Shown: positions 29,984 to 36,287 of the stretch, in pieces
Numbering within the stretch: position 1 is the first letter of the stretch
Layout of the letters: each line of letters opens with the position of its first letter
Source of the DNA: Promethearchaeota archaeon
GTDB taxonomy: Archaea > Asgardarchaeota > Thorarchaeia > Thorarchaeales > Thorarchaeaceae
Assembly: GCA_048939765.1 (NCBI GenBank)
Contig: JBHLPF010000020.1
Coordinates: forward strand, 4,527 to 68,526
Length of the DNA: 64,000 bases
Direction: 5' to 3'
Notes under the pieces: generated by a model
Seen by the model: only the letters and a program-made list of their open reading frames with translations
What the model was told of the DNA's origin: nothing
Databases searched by the model: none
Translations under genes and position numbers: made by a program

Positions 29984-31249
29984 CTAGGCACCCCCTAAGT
30001 CCATGTAGACCTGTAATGCCACAGAGTTTGCCTCAGTTACACTCGTGGGGATGTCAGTAGGTCCTGTTGATGTCCCACAAGCATAGATCCCTTTCTTGGA
30101 GGCCTGACGGGAGACGAATCCATACTGGTCAAGCATTGCCATGAATTCTTCATTCTCAGATGCGAGAGGGATGAGGGGTGAGGCCAATACAACAAGGTCT
30201 GACTCAAGCTCAAGTCGTTTCTTCGACTCGGTGTCCTCCACAACTGTGACCGGAGCCTCATTTCGGATGATGACGTGGTCAGGCTTTCCTCGCACAAAGC
30301 TGACCCCTAGCTCTCTTGCTAGATCGAGATAGTGCTGACTATGAGGCGGGATTCGGAGGTCCATGTAGCATATAGTAACGTTGACCCCTAGACCTCTCAG
30401 CATGGTTGCATGCTTCAAGCTATATGTACAGCAAGCCTGTGAACAATACTCGACCGCGTTCAGGTCCCTACTGCCTGCACACAGAACCATCGTGACGGAT
30501 TCCACTGGATTTCCTGAGGAGGTGAGGACTGAACCATTTGTAGGCCCTGTCGAGTCAAGAAGACGAGCTAACTCTCGTTGAGTAAGGATATCGTCGCACT
30601 CGCCATATGCATATCCGGGAAGCGAGATTGGATTTCTCTCCTCCACACCAGTCGCAATGACCACTGCATCAGCCTTCACAGTATGGCTCTTGGCTTTCTG
30701 TTCTAGATTGATGGCATCCACTCCGCAGACCTCAACACATTTCCCGCACTTGTTGCAAGACTCGATGTCAATCACTGGGATGAGTGGGGCTCCCTGTGGA
30801 ATTGGTCTGTAGATGGCCTTCCGCTGGCTCTTCCCGAGGTTCAGCGCGTCTGGTACCTCAACAGGACAGACGTTGATGCACTCCAAACACACGACACATC
30901 TGTCTGTCGAAATGAGCCTCGGAGCGGTCCGGAGGGATACAGAAAACTTACCTCCATCCTTCTTTATGGATTTGACATCGGTCAATGTATGGAGTGTCAA
31001 CCCCTTCTGTAGACCAAGTAGGCTCCTATATTGACAACGACGATGTTTCCCATCATACAATTCCTCACAAACATCAAGGCAAAGTGCACAGTCGTCAGTA
31101 GGAAAGACCTTGCCAAGATGAGTCGAGAGACCCCCCACTGTTGCTTCCTTCTCTACCAGATGAACTCTCAACCTGAGATCTGAAAGCTGTTGAGCGACCT
31201 GTATGCCTGCAAGTCCAGCTCCAATCACAACTACAGTCTTCGTCGTCAT
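29984..31249 (-). CDS. Short HdrA-like flavoprotein (core plus inserted ferredoxin)
   Basis: GAGLAG, KVFPTDDCALC and CAGSRD..YCSQACC motifs; lacks HdrA N- and C-terminal domains. Confidence 0.85.
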   Translation of the reverse strand: MTTKTVVVIGAGLAGIQVAQQLSDLRLRVHLVEKEATVGGLSTHLGKVFPTDDCALCLDVCEELYDGKHRRCQYRSLLGLQKGLTLHTLTDVKSIKKDGGKFSVSLRTAPRLISTDRCVVCLECINVCPVEVPDALNLGKSQRKAIYRPIPQGAPLIPVIDIESCNKCGKCVEVCGVDAINLEQKAKSHTVKADAVVIATGVEERNPISLPGYAYGECDDILTQRELARLLDSTGPTNGSVLTSSGNPVESVTMVLCAGSRDLNAVEYCSQACCTYSLKHATMLRGLGVNVTICYMDLRIPPHSQHYLDLARELGVSFVRGKPDHVIIRNEAPVTVVEDTESKKRLELESDLVVLASPLIPLASENEEFMAMLDQYGFVSRQASKKGIYACGTSTGPTDIPTSVTEANSVALQVYMDLGGA

Positions 31250-32148
31250 TTGCCAACCTCCATCTTCTCCAACAGAGGCTGGATTTTCACTCTATGATAC
31301 CTTCTGGAATTATCAACAACAAGATCTGTCAGTCCCATTGCAAGAGCGAGCATCTCTCCTAAGTATAGAACAGGCAGACTGAATTCTGGATCCAAGTACT
31401 CGATGACCTTCTTCTGCTGCATCTCCATCTGGGTGTAGCAGGTTGGACATACCAACACTATGGCATCTGCACCAGCGTCTCTTATCTTTTCCAGCTTCTT
31501 GGCTGTCAGGGCAAGAGATTTGGACTCATCCGAAGGGGAGATTGGTGCTCCACAGCATGCCATCTTGTCAGGATAGTCTATCGGATTGGCACCTGTCACC
31601 TCAATCAAATCATCCATCCACCTCGGGTCCTCTGCATCATCCATATGAGTCGCATCAATTGGCCTTACAAGATGACACCCATAGTGAGCAGCAATTGAGA
31701 GATTCTTGAGAGGCTGAACTATGTTCTTTCTAATCTTGTCTAGACCCACGTCCTCATGCAATACATGTAGAATGTTCTTCACGCTGACTTCTCCTGTGGC
31801 CTCCATTCCAATCTTGTTCAGTCGTTTGTTTATACGCTCGCGAATTTCGCTGTCGGATTGCAGTGTGTGCCTGACTAAAGCCAAAGTATGGAAGCAGCCA
31901 CTGCATAATGCCACCGTGTCTCTTCCAGTGCCCTCACTGACTGCAATGTTTCTAGCTCCAATTGTGAGCCATGCTTCAAAATCCACACCAGTGAAAGTTG
32001 TTGGTTCTGGGCAACAAGTATGTCCTTCATCAGCGATAAGCTCGATATTCAGTCGGCTTAGAACCTCCCGCATCGTTAGCTCGAAGTGTGGGAGTCTGAA
32101 TGGGATCATACAGCCAGGGAAGTATGTATATTCAATGGCTTTACTCAT
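31246..32148 (-). CDS. hdrB: Heterodisulfide reductase subunit B (second copy)
   Basis: FPGC, TCCP, CSGC, HYGCH, ACCG and CPTC motifs. Confidence 0.9.
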   Translation of the reverse strand: MSKAIEYTYFPGCMIPFRLPHFELTMREVLSRLNIELIADEGHTCCPEPTTFTGVDFEAWLTIGARNIAVSEGTGRDTVALCSGCFHTLALVRHTLQSDSEIRERINKRLNKIGMEATGEVSVKNILHVLHEDVGLDKIRKNIVQPLKNLSIAAHYGCHLVRPIDATHMDDAEDPRWMDDLIEVTGANPIDYPDKMACCGAPISPSDESKSLALTAKKLEKIRDAGADAIVLVCPTCYTQMEMQQKKVIEYLDPEFSLPVLYLGEMLALAMGLTDLVVDNSRRYHRVKIQPLLEKMEVGK

Positions 32149-32659
32149 CGACATCATCTCCTTCGATTGAATCGAGCCTCTTAGCAAGCCCTAGTTCCTT
32201 GAGTACCTTAGAAAGCTGCTCAACTGGAGGACTTCCTAGAGATGGAAGCCCCATTTTATCGCGGGTCTTGAGCATGGGGTCACTAACTTGGATTGTTCTT
32301 CCCTGTGACATAATAGAGCGAGCGCGTTCTAGAGCTATCTGAGGTGTATTTCCAATCGCTAGACCTCTGACCTTGGCAAGGATCAGAATCTGAGGTATTT
32401 TCACATGCTCAGGACATCGTACCTCACATTGCTCACAGGTAAGACAGGACCAGATGAGTTGATTCTCCGTTAAGGAATCATCAGCAAAGATGACTTTCTC
32501 AAGGAAAAGACGAGGATTGAAAGATGAATCAATCTCAGCGACAGGACAGGCACTAGTGCATCGCCCACACTGATAGCATCTAAGCAGTGTTTCTCCTTCT
32601 GGTTGTTGGAGAATCCAGTTTCTAAATACAAGGTCAGACGATATGTTACTGGAAGCCAT
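32141..32659 (-). CDS. hdrC: Heterodisulfide reductase subunit C (second copy)
   Basis: CYQCGRCTSACP and WSCLTCEQCEVRCP motifs. Confidence 0.9.
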   Translation of the reverse strand: MASSNISSDLVFRNWILQQPEGETLLRCYQCGRCTSACPVAEIDSSFNPRLFLEKVIFADDSLTENQLIWSCLTCEQCEVRCPEHVKIPQILILAKVRGLAIGNTPQIALERARSIMSQGRTIQVSDPMLKTRDKMGLPSLGSPPVEQLSKVLKELGLAKRLDSIEGDDVDE

Positions 32660-32721
32660 ATACAGCAACTCCGTTTTATGGATGTGCAATAAGAGAGGTC
32701 ATCGAAGTCACATCTGAATGA

Positions 32722-32786: not shown

Positions 32787-32866
32787 ATGGAAGGGTGCTC
32801 AGGACCGCGAGAGGGACGTTTCTCGAATACTCTATCTCACCGGCGTCTACGCATCTCTCTACCTTA
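32787..32866 (-). repeat. Diverged copy of the 16S 3' trailer repeat
   Basis: aagggtgctcag...aatactctatctcacc...tctctctacctta; abuts the stop codon of 32864-33685. Confidence 0.75.
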
Positions 32867-33685
32867 AGAGATGGATGAATCAATAATACGCCTAACACTC
32901 AGCAGCATATTATACCCACGTGTAAGCAATTTCGTCGAATCATGACTCCAAATCTTGCTAGCATGACCCCATTTGAATTTCAATTCACCATATCTCTTAG
33001 AGAGAATCGCGTATCGCTTCTTTAGGGTCTTGGGTTGCGTCCCGGTTCCTTTGGCTTGATCGCGCAAGTCTTTGGCTAGCGTTTCGAAGGATGTGAAATC
33101 ATGTGATAACGTACGAGCAACGGCATTATGTATTTCGGACGGATGATCAATTATTCTGAGTCGTGACCATCTGAACGCCTCTGCTCCTAGACCACGTAAC
33201 TCCTCACTCAGTTTCCTTGAATCCATTAGCACATACTTTTCATCGGATTCCAGTAGTCTTCGTCTTTCCTTTGATTTCAGAACAGGAAATAAGAGGACGC
33301 CGGGTCGTAATCGAATCGAAGTTGATCTTCGAACTAATCGCTCTACTCTCTTCTTCTGGGTGGCAGTAGGATTCCTGAAACGATAGGAAACGACTGAATA
33401 AACACGTCTGTCACCTGCTTCTCCTCCATGTTCACTGACACTCGGAATCTCACGTGCTTTCTTGAAGGCAATCGTCGGTAAGTCCTGTAAAGGTGATTTC
33501 TCAGTAGAAGTTTGGCTTTGAATAAGAAATGCACCCCTTCCGACTCTAACTGCGTTCCCGAGAGATCTGAGCTTCCTTGCAGACGCTCTTATTATCTTGG
33601 CATTGCCCAGAATTACAACAAGCTGTGACTGCCCCTTCATTGTGACATTGATTGCAGTGGAATCAGATACATCTGCATCGCTCAC
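32864..33685 (-). CDS. Basic hypothetical protein, possibly a PaaX/Cas2-like ferredoxin-fold domain plus helical C-terminus
   Basis: YSVVSYRF...KKRVERLVRRS..IRLRPGVLLFP pattern; weak assignment. Confidence 0.55.
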   Translation of the reverse strand: MSDADVSDSTAINVTMKGQSQLVVILGNAKIIRASARKLRSLGNAVRVGRGAFLIQSQTSTEKSPLQDLPTIAFKKAREIPSVSEHGGEAGDRRVYSVVSYRFRNPTATQKKRVERLVRRSTSIRLRPGVLLFPVLKSKERRRLLESDEKYVLMDSRKLSEELRGLGAEAFRWSRLRIIDHPSEIHNAVARTLSHDFTSFETLAKDLRDQAKGTGTQPKTLKKRYAILSKRYGELKFKWGHASKIWSHDSTKLLTRGYNMLLSVRRIIDSSIS

Positions 33686-33925
33686 AATACATCAGTTCTC
33701 CGAAACGACAAATAGTGACACACCTTCGCGCATGTCATATCTGCTAATATTCTTGTCTACGAGGTCTATAACCACTTTTAACAATTAACCAACTTGATAA
33801 CGGAGATTATTCGATAAATAGTGCTCATTGGCCTTTGATTCTGAGTTTGGAGCGTCATTCAGTCCATAATTTCCATGGTCATTTTTTACTCCTTTTTTGG
33901 GCAGCATAGTCAAGAGGTGAACTTC

Positions 33926-34006
33926 ATGTGCTTTGACGATGAAGACATCTGGGCCGATGATGACGACGATTGGGACGACGATGACTGGGATGACGATGAC
34001 GAATAG
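33926..34006 (+). CDS. 26-aa acidic Asp/Trp micropeptide
   Basis: GAGGTGA RBS (33914-33920); MCFDDEDIWADDDDDWDDDDWDDDDE*; mixed GAT/GAC codons. Confidence 0.6.
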   Translation: MCFDDEDIWADDDDDWDDDDWDDDDE

Positions 34007-34080
34007 TCTGAGTCAGATCTGATTCATCAATCTCATCCGTTGTCACTTCGTGTTTCTGAATTAAAAGGAGATAACCTAAA

Positions 34081-34155
34081 ATGGCAAAGAAGAAACCAGC
34101 TACAAAGAAGAAGAAAGCCGAACCAAAGGCGGCTCCTGCCAAGAAGAAGAAATAG
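34081..34155 (+). CDS. 24-aa Lys/Ala/Pro-rich basic micropeptide
   Basis: AGGAG RBS (34066-34070); MAKKKPATKKKKAEPKAAPAKKKK*. Confidence 0.65.
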   Translation: MAKKKPATKKKKAEPKAAPAKKKK

Positions 34156-34230
34156 CAGCATGCTGTAGGATGGGCTCATAGCTCATCCAGACTGCTGTTG
34201 AACTTCAGACTTTTTCTCATTTTGTTTTCA
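34156..34230 (+). terminator. Hairpin plus T-rich tract after the micropeptide pair
   Basis: GGATGGGC-N5-GCTCATCC stem flanked by CAGCA/TGCTG, then ttttctcattttgttttc. Confidence 0.5.
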
Positions 34231-34617: not shown

Positions 34618-34989
34618 TCATGAGCTGTAGTGTGTAGTGAATGAGCCAGAATATTCAATGGGCCGCATAGACCATTCCGATGCGATCGCATCTGTTTGAT
34701 ATGACGTCTTGACCGGGGGCATCCAAGTTTGTGGGTACATCCAGATCTCAACTATACTCCCCGTGAAGCCTGCAGACTCTGGAACGCGGCCACGCAAAGT
34801 GTTCCTGTATACTGACAGCTGAATCCTATAGTTGGCTATAGTTCCATTCTTCAGGGTAACGCCTCCCTTATAGCTCCCTGATTTGAGACCATAGAATTCT
34901 TTCACATATTTAGGCACGTAGAACAAGTGGTAGTGTCCTGCACCTTTCCTCAATCTTGACAGAAATCTCAAAGGCATTCTAGACTTCAC
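34618..34989 (-). CDS. Hypothetical protein, AbrB/SpoVT-like N-terminal motif
   Basis: FYVPKYVKEFYGLKSG; GTGAGG RBS overlapping the GTG start. Confidence 0.55.
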   Translation of the reverse strand: MKSRMPLRFLSRLRKGAGHYHLFYVPKYVKEFYGLKSGSYKGGVTLKNGTIANYRIQLSVYRNTLRGRVPESAGFTGSIVEIWMYPQTWMPPVKTSYQTDAIASEWSMRPIEYSGSFTTHYSS

Positions 34990-35471: not shown

Positions 35472-35532
35472 TGTAAACAAGTTTATAACCAAAAGAATAC
35501 ATTATGTATACAAATGTATACTATTGCATACA
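35472..35532. promoter_or_regulatory. Phased TGTATACA-like boxes upstream of the zf-PARP gene
   Basis: Boxes at 35472, 35505, 35515 and 35525. Confidence 0.6.
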
Positions 35533-35561
35533 ATACGGTGGTCGAAGTGTTGAATAGCAAT

Positions 35562-36287
35562 ATGCATCAGACTAATGCCAATCAAGAAGGTAAGCACCAG
35601 AGAATCGAGAGAGGCACGAATTGGGTCGAGATTGAAACCGAATGGGCCTATTGGATTGACTCCGAGTCATTCAACCTCAAACGGTTAAAGAAACGTGCCC
35701 CTGTAGGTGCAATCATTATTGTAAAGACCAGAAAGAAACTTGATGACGAAAGAACATACGTGGATGACTCATTTGGTTTGATTGTGGAAAATGGAATTGA
35801 GGATCTTACGAAGAGAGAAGCAAGCGACATTCTTGCCAAGCAAGCATTGGAATATATGAGATGGTCGAAACATTGGCCGCCTTTCGTGGAACTCAAGGAT
35901 ATTCAAAAGTCAGGAGATGTGAAGGTCATCTTTAAGCCCAGTGAATACGATTCCTTCATTCTCCTTATGACCCGCAACATGATTGGTGCTGATCCAGCCG
36001 AGTTCCTCAGTAAACTCAAGAAACATGAAGCACCAAAGGAACCTTCATGGAGAGTTGAAACTGCTAAATCGGGGAGGTCAAGATGTCGTTCATGTCGAGA
36101 TTACATATTTGAGGGCAGATTCCGAATTGGTGAACCGTATCTCTATGAGGGGAACCTTTCCTACAGATGGTATCACCCAAGATGCGTTGCAACAAGGATA
36201 GATCTGAATGAGCTTGAGAGTCTAGATGGATACAGCAAGCTCAGACCTGATGAAAAACAACGGTTGAAGCATCTATTAGCACAGTAG
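35562..36287 (+). CDS. Protein with C-terminal PARP-type zinc finger (start uncertain)
   Basis: VETAKSGRSRCRSC...RIG...WYHPRC...LDGYSKLRPDEK. Confidence 0.8.
   Translation: MHQTNANQEGKHQRIERGTNWVEIETEWAYWIDSESFNLKRLKKRAPVGAIIIVKTRKKLDDERTYVDDSFGLIVENGIEDLTKREASDILAKQALEYMRWSKHWPPFVELKDIQKSGDVKVIFKPSEYDSFILLMTRNMIGADPAEFLSKLKKHEAPKEPSWRVETAKSGRSRCRSCRDYIFEGRFRIGEPYLYEGNLSYRWYHPRCVATRIDLNELESLDGYSKLRPDEKQRLKHLLAQ

Follow-up and report, generated by a model that had tools for sequence, protein, structure and literature searches.

DSS1/Sem1, a small disordered protein of acidic character in which Trp residues are conserved, has BRCA2, PCI proteins and RPA as binding partners. Prothymosin-alpha, which has no Trp, forms a disordered polyelectrolyte complex with linker histone H1, and the acidic (A) region of WASP-family proteins with its DDW motifs binds Arp2/3. 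Here we present a locus from an Asgard archaeon, a member of the closest known relatives of eukaryotes, in which two micro open reading frames (micro-ORFs) stand side by side, one encoding an extremely acidic peptide with spaced Trp residues and the other a peptide rich in Lys, Ala and Pro (K/A/P). The locus lies near the middle of the window, by which we mean the whole stretch of 64,000 nucleotides that was analysed (Promethearchaeota archaeon, GenBank assembly GCA_048939765.1, contig JBHLPF010000020.1, positions 4,527 to 68,526). The window is part of contig C94 of an assembly of 3.37 Mb in 108 contigs that is 88.5% complete. Both micro-genes are part of a Thorarchaeota-specific module with F0, our designation for a very basic protein encoded divergently from them, and the micro-gene pair is probably bicistronic.

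Layout and coding status of the micro-ORFs

Sequence reading together with the ORF listing placed the acidic micro-ORF (type M, the F0-linked kind) at 33926-34006 on the plus strand. It starts with ATG at 33926, comprises 26 codons and ends with TAG at 34004-34006. Its product of 26 amino acids (aa), MCFDDEDIWADDDDDWDDDDWDDDDE, contains 16 D, 2 E and 3 W and has a net charge of about -18; beyond codon 3, D or E fills 18 of 23 positions, so that the peptide is 69% D/E with a run beginning at codon 4. The Shine-Dalgarno (SD) sequence GAGGTGA (33914-33920, plus strand) stands 5 nt ahead of the start codon. A first-pass annotation, made from the sequence alone, had proposed that this motif pairs with the 16S tail; indeed, it is a perfect 7-nt complement to the 3′ end (...GGAUCACCUCCU) of the 16S gene within the window. 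A spacer of 74 nt without T-tract (34007-34080, plus strand) leads to the basic micro-ORF (34081-34155, plus strand), identified in the same way, which starts with ATG at 34081, has 24 codons and ends with TAG at 34153-34155. It is preceded at 10 nt by an SD-like AGGAG (34066-34070, plus strand) and encodes the 24-aa peptide MAKKKPATKKKKAEPKAAPAKKKK, with 12 K, 6 A, 3 P and a charge of +11. A terminator-like hairpin follows at 34153-34200 on the same strand (dG -23 kcal/mol, z -2.27 against 200 shuffles), and then T-tracts at 34211-34228. This is the succession of peptides, spacer, ribosome-binding sites (RBSs), hairpin and T-tract that had been laid out in the first-pass annotation, and every element was recovered. 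The unit is solitary on the plus strand. It is divergent from the 273-aa ORF of F0 (32864-33685, minus strand) and convergent with a 123-aa ORF (34618-34989, minus strand), for which no match was obtained in Pfam or NCBIfam.

The locus was recovered at 72-92% identity in 7 congeners by a DNA search of 40 relatives, and in further congeners the two ORF patches match separately with their order kept. On translation, the acidic ORF was present in 26 of 26 fetched loci, followed in the main loci by the basic one. In 26 of the 28 acidic ORFs of loci L002-L027, an in-frame ATG, GTG or TTG is preceded at 5-9 nt by an SD-like motif, in most cases GAGGTGA; the remaining two are one at a contig end and one atypical second copy. 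The acidic orthologues are 25-40 aa long and follow the pattern M-x-F-D-D-E-D-(I/V/T)-W...(W-(D/E)3-6)n. Across 39 sequences (alignments A3 and A5), W17 is invariant, and W, F or Y recurs every 4-7 residues within the D/E runs. The basic orthologues, of 19-31 aa, begin with M(A/S)KKKP..., finish with KKKK(K) and keep the K/A/P composition. Length changes in both ORFs consist of whole codons only, and in the acidic ORF the variation looks like gain and loss of W-(D/E)n units. A longer reading of 43 codons from an ATG at 33875 was rejected: stops intervene in relatives, and the conserved product is that of 26 aa.

The variation between orthologues was then analysed by codon position and by frame. 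Among six acidic orthologues of equal length, 0, 2 and 11 columns vary at codon positions 1, 2 and 3, respectively; nine codons vary synonymously only and three otherwise. Ratios of non-synonymous to synonymous differences per site (pN/pS) were obtained from Nei-Gojobori counts and compared between the reading frames. For the acidic frame they amount to 0.03 in the genus (main copy), 0.12 in the paralogue described below and 0.21 in a second genus. The basic frame gave 0.23 and 0.31, against 0.66-5.6 in its other sense frames, and overall the other two sense frames either had a pN/pS of 0.48-5.6 or showed zero synonymous change. Since third-position variation and low pN/pS are confined to the proposed frame, this is taken as the coding frame. 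An antisense ORF of 72 aa (33924-34142, minus strand) was rejected, being open in only 5 of 15 loci.

Such ORFs are also rare. A six-frame scan of the whole 3.37-Mb assembly for stop-to-stop frames with at least 14 D/E in the last 22 residues delivered four frames: the window ORF, a paralogue on contig C88 and the ends of frames of 414 and 327 aa. Among 18 short K/R-rich frames in a genome scan, the window ORF alone is of the K/A/P type. The DNA pattern for W-(D/E)3-6-W-(D/E)3 has a match in 50 of 86 genomes of the host's family, nearly always at acidic micro-ORFs, and the reversed pattern, used as a control, in none (0/86). Because the genome holds only two acidic micro-ORFs and the reversed control is empty, the ORFs go beyond chance. 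Taken together, these sequence comparisons make the coding status of both ORFs well supported: they look like genuine genes and not a microsatellite. The first-pass annotation had come to the same view, and the single-frame pN/pS, the third-position variation and the whole-codon lengths sustain it; the conservation of frame and RBS that it had called for was likewise found in relatives, where frame, SD, start and stop are all kept.

F0 and the copy beside MTAP

In total, 61 loci upstream of F0 were fetched, 52 of them in the family. Here 50 of 52 loci have the acidic ORF ahead of F0 in divergent orientation, covering the 14 genera where F0 was found; the two loci without it are a contig end and L069. 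A distant F0 relative in another family (G330; E 8.9e-14) has an acidic ORF encoding MDEDWDKEDEDWDMEDEDWEEDWEED as its neighbour. Downstream of the acidic ORF, a basic ORF occurs in 27 of the 52 F0 loci, in four genera, and the acidic peptides are neither longer nor more charged where it is present. In some genera F0 is flanked on both sides by acidic micro-ORFs, the second of which has a WG(D/E)EW-type motif, e.g. MYKERDDLMDWDDVEWDEEEWGDEWEEYDNW. Examples of such second acidic-Trp ORFs are found at L025:2709-2801 (minus strand), around position 1474 of L093 (plus strand) and at L027:2741-3079 (minus strand).

F0 has 273 aa and an isoelectric point (pI) of 10.7, with 53 K+R against 27 D+E and a net charge of about +26; its middle third reaches a pI of 11.4. 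The invariant residues include Q110, K111, K112, R116, R125 and R127, a K/R-rich stretch. The homologues amount to 63 matches, hypothetical proteins only, and nearly all are from Thorarchaeota, with a few labelled Hodarchaeota or Promethearchaeota. These names also settle the host as an Asgard archaeon, as the first-pass annotation had assumed. A profile search detected F0 in 59 of the 85 remaining genomes of the family, with more distant matches in three further families (7/19, 1/3 and 2/5), and the protein forms 59 clusters among 1.84 billion representative proteins. Upstream of F0 lie, in this genome only, genes for HdrB-like (CCG domains) and HdrC-like (4Fe-4S dicluster) proteins (31246-32689, minus strand), which stand outside the conserved module.

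An AlphaFold2 model of F0 (predicted local distance difference test, pLDDT, 82.9; predicted template-modelling score, pTM, 0.80) shows two ferredoxin-like beta-alpha-beta-beta(-alpha-beta) units followed by a C-terminal three-helix bundle. A Foldseek search of this model against the PDB gave nothing at E<=0.001; its weak top rows include PaaX (8a39) and the PaaX-like Rv0674 (3kfw), with template-modelling (TM) scores of 0.2-0.26. VIA returned only three-helix bundles for the full model, e.g. spectrin with Z 12.3, and only generic ferredoxin-like, ACT or Cas2 folds for residues 1-182, with Z<=6.4. PDB searches by sequence and profile yielded coiled-coil noise only, and the ESM Atlas only the protein's own clusters. 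When 25 relatives were scanned, the distant relative P0098 matched PaaX_M (PF20803) with E 5.5e-8 and 33.2 bits at a cut-off of 24, and P0104 came just under this cut-off. PaaX-family regulators consist of a central Cas2-like domain (PF20803) and a helical C-terminal domain, and F0, which has no Pfam match itself, shares the order of a ferredoxin-like domain followed by a helical bundle. It differs from PaaX in lacking the N-terminal winged helix and having a second ferredoxin-like domain in its place: in the model, residues 20-76 form a beta-alpha-beta-beta-alpha-beta unit where the winged helix would sit. F0 is thus a lineage-specific, very basic protein which probably contains PaaX_M/Cas2-like domains.

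The C88 paralogue in the window's own genome, MFFDDDDWYDTEEDWEDDEWEDDDDW, begins with GTG behind the same GAGGTGA. It is located between the genes for S-methyl-5′-thioadenosine phosphorylase (MTAP), which it meets 3′ end to 3′ end, and a nitrilase-like CN-hydrolase; beyond these lie a phosphoribosyltransferase (PRTase) and a MazG-like gene. In other genera the rough order is MazG-like, CN-hydrolase, [acidic ORF], F0, acidic ORF, MTAP and PRTase, and it appears that the window's genus split one ancestral region and that each part retained an acidic ORF. Acidic ORFs next to MTAP but without a detected F0 were further found at 4 of 4 loci of genus g4, in g26 and g25, and at only 1 of 5 loci of g3. 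In other families, no acidic ORF was found downstream of MTAP in 17 loci from 10 families. The acidic peptide family is family-wide and old, with one to three copies per genome and no absolute dependence on F0. None of the examined paralogue loci beside MTAP contains the basic ORF.

MTAP is tied to the recycling of a by-product of polyamine synthesis. A link of the acidic peptides to this pathway through their neighbours is only a thought and was put aside: the assignment of MTAP is clear, but the CN-hydrolase falls below all curated cut-offs, and a GNAT protein is only weakly like spermidine acetyltransferase. Two further genes near the paralogue were recorded. A methyltransferase (C88:40427-41374, plus strand; L089:762-1709) matches PrmA and the PRMT5 oligomerisation domain PF17286 (E 3.4e-8) and may, judged by these matches, be a PRMT-like arginine methyltransferase. 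The other (C88:45019-45576, minus strand; L089:5354-5911) encodes a predicted membrane protein of 185 aa with an N-terminal tail rich in D, E and Y, MPGEDFDSEDEYDESDDEEDYEDDDDYYEDEEGF..., and no Pfam match.

Control region, transcript and possible function

The region between F0 and the acidic ORF, which measures 226-293 nt in 25 loci, was studied in an alignment of 10 genus loci (A6) and by 7-mer counts from 25 of these intergenic regions. Invariant columns of A6 comprise TTTACT, the acidic SD, the GGA of the second SD and, in both ORFs, most columns at codon positions 1 and 2. The commonest shared 7-mer is GAGGTGA itself (22/25). The hexamer TTTACT (33885-33890, plus strand), about 24 nt upstream of the SD, is invariant in all 10 genus loci and extends to TTTACTC in 17 of 25 intergenic regions; it is likely a TATA-like promoter element of the micro-ORF transcript. 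On the F0 side, the block TAATAT..TTGTCTA (33745-33759, minus strand), also invariant in A6 and with 7-mer counts of 10-15 of 25, is likely the TATA/promoter region of F0 on the minus strand. The 7-mer GTGACAC (33715-33721, no strand assigned), about 30-36 nt upstream of the F0 start, is invariant in the 10 genus loci and present in 21 of 25 intergenic regions, and is a possible transcription-start/initiator or operator element of F0.

Downstream, the spacer between the acidic stop and the basic ORF varies from 64 to 132 nt across loci. Since it contains no T-tract, both ORFs are probably carried on one transcript. As second SD, GGAG(A) is kept in the genus loci, and a second genus has GGATGTGA-like sequences in its place. 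The hairpin and T-rich tail after the second ORF recur in relatives with weak covariation (6 consensus pairs, 2 of them compensatory). TCATC motifs in the spacer are complementary to GAT-GAY codons of the acidic ORF, and the duplex between the two, compared with shuffled spacers, reached z < -0.9 in 15 of 17 loci and <= -2.2 in 10 of 17. The predicted accessibility of the basic RBS is about equal with and without the acidic ORF, and a structural switch coupling the two ORFs was rejected on this ground.

Stretches of the basic-peptide style, rich in K/A/P(T), also occur within larger proteins of the same genome. Eight of these were run on Pfam: Rpb1 domain 5 (RNA polymerase A′′), eL32 with HhH, uL18/L5e, Topo VI-A with HhH, an FKBP, a HEAT-repeat protein, an HdrA/FlpD fusion and a membrane-like protein without Pfam match. 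Four of the eight thus belong to the nucleic-acid machinery. The K/A/P/T-tailed genes lie outside the window, at C12:8784-10127, C71:10381-11139, C71:11597-12427, C85:64295-66454, C78:62477-63301, C26:16567-17241 and C71:25370-27907. The addition of polycationic tails looks like a lineage-wide habit, and the basic micro-ORF is a free-standing copy of this tail type. Because K/A/P tails sit on nucleic-acid machinery, we infer an affinity of the K/A/P peptide for nucleic acids. Elsewhere in the window, a 257-aa protein (35514-36287, plus strand) was noted whose C-terminal part is a PARP-type zinc finger (zf-PARP, E 3e-13) and whose N-terminal part has no recognised domain; this type of finger senses DNA nicks and is familiar mainly from eukaryotic PARP and DNA ligase III.

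We tentatively propose, as a plausible but by no means secure reading, that the acidic peptide is a disordered, Trp-anchored polyanion acting on basic nucleic-acid-binding surfaces, with F0 as prime partner and the K/A/P peptide as second. The acidic ORF would be expressed from its own promoter on a short, probably bicistronic mRNA, both ORFs of which would be translated. The acidic product would be an intrinsically disordered polyanion in which a Trp every 5-7 residues serves as an aromatic anchor. It would act in trans by docking on strongly basic surfaces that bind nucleic acids, as mimic, competitor or chaperone. F0 is the prime candidate for the partner because of the conserved divergent arrangement and the complementary charges (about -18 against about +26), and the two genes share a control region of about 240 nt. 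In some genera, the co-transcribed K/A/P polycation may be a second partner or a counter-ion.

Several observations weigh against this proposal. F0 matches nothing in Pfam or NCBIfam, a Pfam DNA-binding domain included, and the folds that it resembles are generic. Four genomes (G339, G346, G350 and G022) carry an MTAP-linked acidic ORF without a detected F0, so the peptide is not strictly tied to it; in two other families, none of 8 loci of distant F0 relatives has an acidic ORF within about 1 kb. The sequencing runs that contain the locus are of DNA only, with no RNA run among them, and are not evidence either way on translation. Moreover, one study (PMC9718836) describes that in bacteria and eukaryotes translation is aborted at D/E runs close to the N-terminus, and that such runs are avoided in proteomes. 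The acidic peptide may thus be poorly made, because it is 69% D/E from codon 4, with the reservation that archaeal ribosomes were not tested in that work. A predicted complex of F0 and the acidic peptide (G021 pair) gave no answer, with a score of 0.00 that speaks neither for nor against binding.

Among the alternatives, the one that survives best takes the pair itself as the functional unit, with the K/A/P peptide as a condenser like an H1 tail or Hc1 and the acidic peptide as its chaperone or antidote. This was the idea of the first-pass annotation, and we consider it rather unlikely. The part concerning the K/A/P peptide fits, as such tails are found on nucleic-acid machinery and one archaeal histone gene is present in the genome. 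The two ORFs also lie on the same strand, 64-132 nt apart and with no T-tract between them, in 27 of 52 F0 loci of four genera, both are under purifying selection, and their charges are opposite (-18 and +11). The chaperone part does not hold in general: 25 of 52 F0 loci and all MTAP-linked loci examined have no basic ORF, and because of this the acidic peptide must have a role without it. Nor are the acidic peptides longer or more charged alongside a basic ORF, and the equal accessibility of the basic RBS gives no structural sign of translational coupling. A model of the pair only is possible for the four genera with both ORFs, yet it cannot be the core role.

Less probable still, though a serious rival, is that the ORFs act in cis as hard-to-translate sensors, the translation of which would itself regulate the transcript or its neighbours through Mg2+- or polyamine-dependent destabilisation of the ribosome by the D/E run and pausing at poly-Lys. 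The acidic ORF is an extreme case of a D/E run, its coding region and the spacer behind it are complementary, and the paralogue is convergent with MTAP. According to PMC9718836, the abortion at D/E runs is Mg2+-dependent, and consecutive Lys or Trp are pausing sequences. However, at paralogues next to MTAP and at roughly half of the F0 loci, the acidic ORF is followed on the same strand by a hairpin or T-rich tail and by a convergent gene only. The Trp positions, the N-terminal M-x-F and the C-terminal Trp are kept at the residue level, which a pure D/E-run sensor would not need, and the accessibility of the basic RBS does not depend on the acidic ORF.

That the locus is an untranslated, conserved repeat of GAY/TGG and AAR with a role at the DNA or RNA level, or simply noise, would fit its low complexity and the fact that all frames of a GAY repeat are open; against this stand the variation at third positions only, with pN/pS of 0.03-0.31 in one frame only, the SD, the three kinds of start codon and the stop that are kept, the whole-codon indels and the absence of the reversed control pattern, and we regard it as very improbable. 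Hardly credible, finally, is that the peptide is a free acidic-Trp motif of eukaryote-like type, similar to the Arp2/3-binding WASP A region brought up in the first-pass annotation or to W-acidic and acidic-aromatic C-terminal motifs, and engages an Asgard cytoskeletal or trafficking protein: composition and DDW-like motifs agree with it, most orthologues finish with ...D-W-COOH and actin is encoded in the genome, but neither a WH2 motif nor a connector helix can be read in the 26 residues, the conserved neighbourhood has no cytoskeletal gene, and ARPC4 (PF05856) and P34-Arc (PF04045) had no match in the 88.5%-complete genome, a result without positive control as the control genomes gave no match either.

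Going beyond the proposed docking on F0, one may imagine a minimal encoded polyelectrolyte system in Thorarchaeota that tunes F0, and perhaps chromatin or ribosomal proteins, on nucleic acids. Its acidic-Trp peptide of 25-40 aa would be a functional analogue of DSS1, prothymosin-alpha or histone-chaperone motifs of acidic-aromatic type, supplemented in some genera by an H1-tail-like K/A/P peptide. We hold this wider picture to be doubtful. If it is true, free-standing acidic-aromatic chaperone motifs existed in Asgard archaea, and Asgard ribosomes efficiently make an N-terminal D/E run that bacteria and eukaryotes avoid. Few conserved coding sequences would be as extreme in charge as the acidic ORF, with 18 acidic residues and 3 Trp of 26. 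If it is translated, a layer of conserved microproteins escapes gene callers in these genomes, archaeal ribosomes tolerate a class of nascent chain at which bacterial and eukaryotic translation aborts, and the ORF would be a natural test case for intrinsic ribosome destabilisation (IRD) in archaea. Acidic-aromatic binders and K/A/P polycations would then be free genes in an Asgard lineage, whereas eukaryotes have them as components of DSS1, prothymosin, histone chaperones and H1. In addition, the pairing with F0 offers a handle on an otherwise uncharacterised lineage-specific family of basic proteins.

Comparison with known systems

Searches for direct relatives of the acidic peptide in databases returned little. 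Among 19 acidic peptides, Pfam assigned no family apart from one match at E=3 to an unrelated family. The DSS1/SEM1 hidden Markov model (HMM) PF05160 had 0 matches at E<=10 in the whole genome and with 3 candidates scored; the composition filters of HMMER may penalise such sequences. There was no PDB chain in a profile search, no cluster among 5.8 billion proteins in a word search (A8), and nothing usable in the ESM Atlas, where the best score was 0.86 and the clusters unnamed. An HMM built from A3 and run over 400 genomes of the phylum recovered the peptide in its own genus only; it missed known orthologues and is too insensitive to define the range. Full-text literature searches on Asgard DSS1, small acidic proteins of Thorarchaeota and Asgard microproteins found no description of these peptides.

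In composition and probable mode of action, the peptides are similar to DSS1/Sem1, to prothymosin-alpha with H1 and to chaperone motifs of acidic-aromatic type. With DSS1/Sem1, the acidic peptide shares that it is small, extremely acidic and presumably disordered, with Trp or Phe spaced within D/E runs, and docking on basic grooves or mimicry of nucleic acids is a plausible common mode. DSS1/Sem1 has about 70-90 aa, whereas the acidic peptide has 26, does not match PF05160 and is found in one archaeal family. With prothymosin-alpha and H1, it is the combination of a polyanion and a K/A/P-rich polycation that is shared, here encoded side by side, and a disordered complex of high affinity is possible. 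Unlike that system, both partners are stand-alone peptides of 20-30 aa, the polyanion has a conserved Trp, and roughly half of the loci lack the polycation gene. H1 and Hc1 condensers have the K/A/P-rich tail in common with the basic peptide, but a GH1 winged-helix or Hc1 domain would not fit into the 19-31 aa found at all 27 loci. The A region of WASP resembles the acidic peptide in its D/E run with Trp and differs in that the latter has no WH2 (V) or C motif and stands alone as a peptide instead of forming the end of a multidomain activator.

IRD sequences and the leader ORFs that make use of them (PMC9718836) share the D/E run from codon 4, and the second ORF of our locus adds a poly-Lys run. 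They differ in that most of our loci have no regulated downstream gene and that aromatic residues are kept here; archaeal ribosomes were not tested there. Two other systems were considered and rejected. A type II toxin-antitoxin system, with an acidic antitoxin and a basic Cas2-like toxin, does not fit, as the acidic ORF and F0 are on opposite strands and form no co-transcribed operon. The locus is also neither patchy nor mobile, being a single syntenic one beside the housekeeping genes for MTAP, PRTase and CN-hydrolase across the family. LysW, an amino-group carrier, has the tail EDWGE, and some of the paralogues carry DWGD or EWGDE; no ATP-grasp ligase is found nearby, and most of the peptides finish in Trp and not in Glu. 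By composition and likely mode, the locus would most closely resemble an acidic disordered binder or nucleic-acid mimic combined with a K/A/P polycation.

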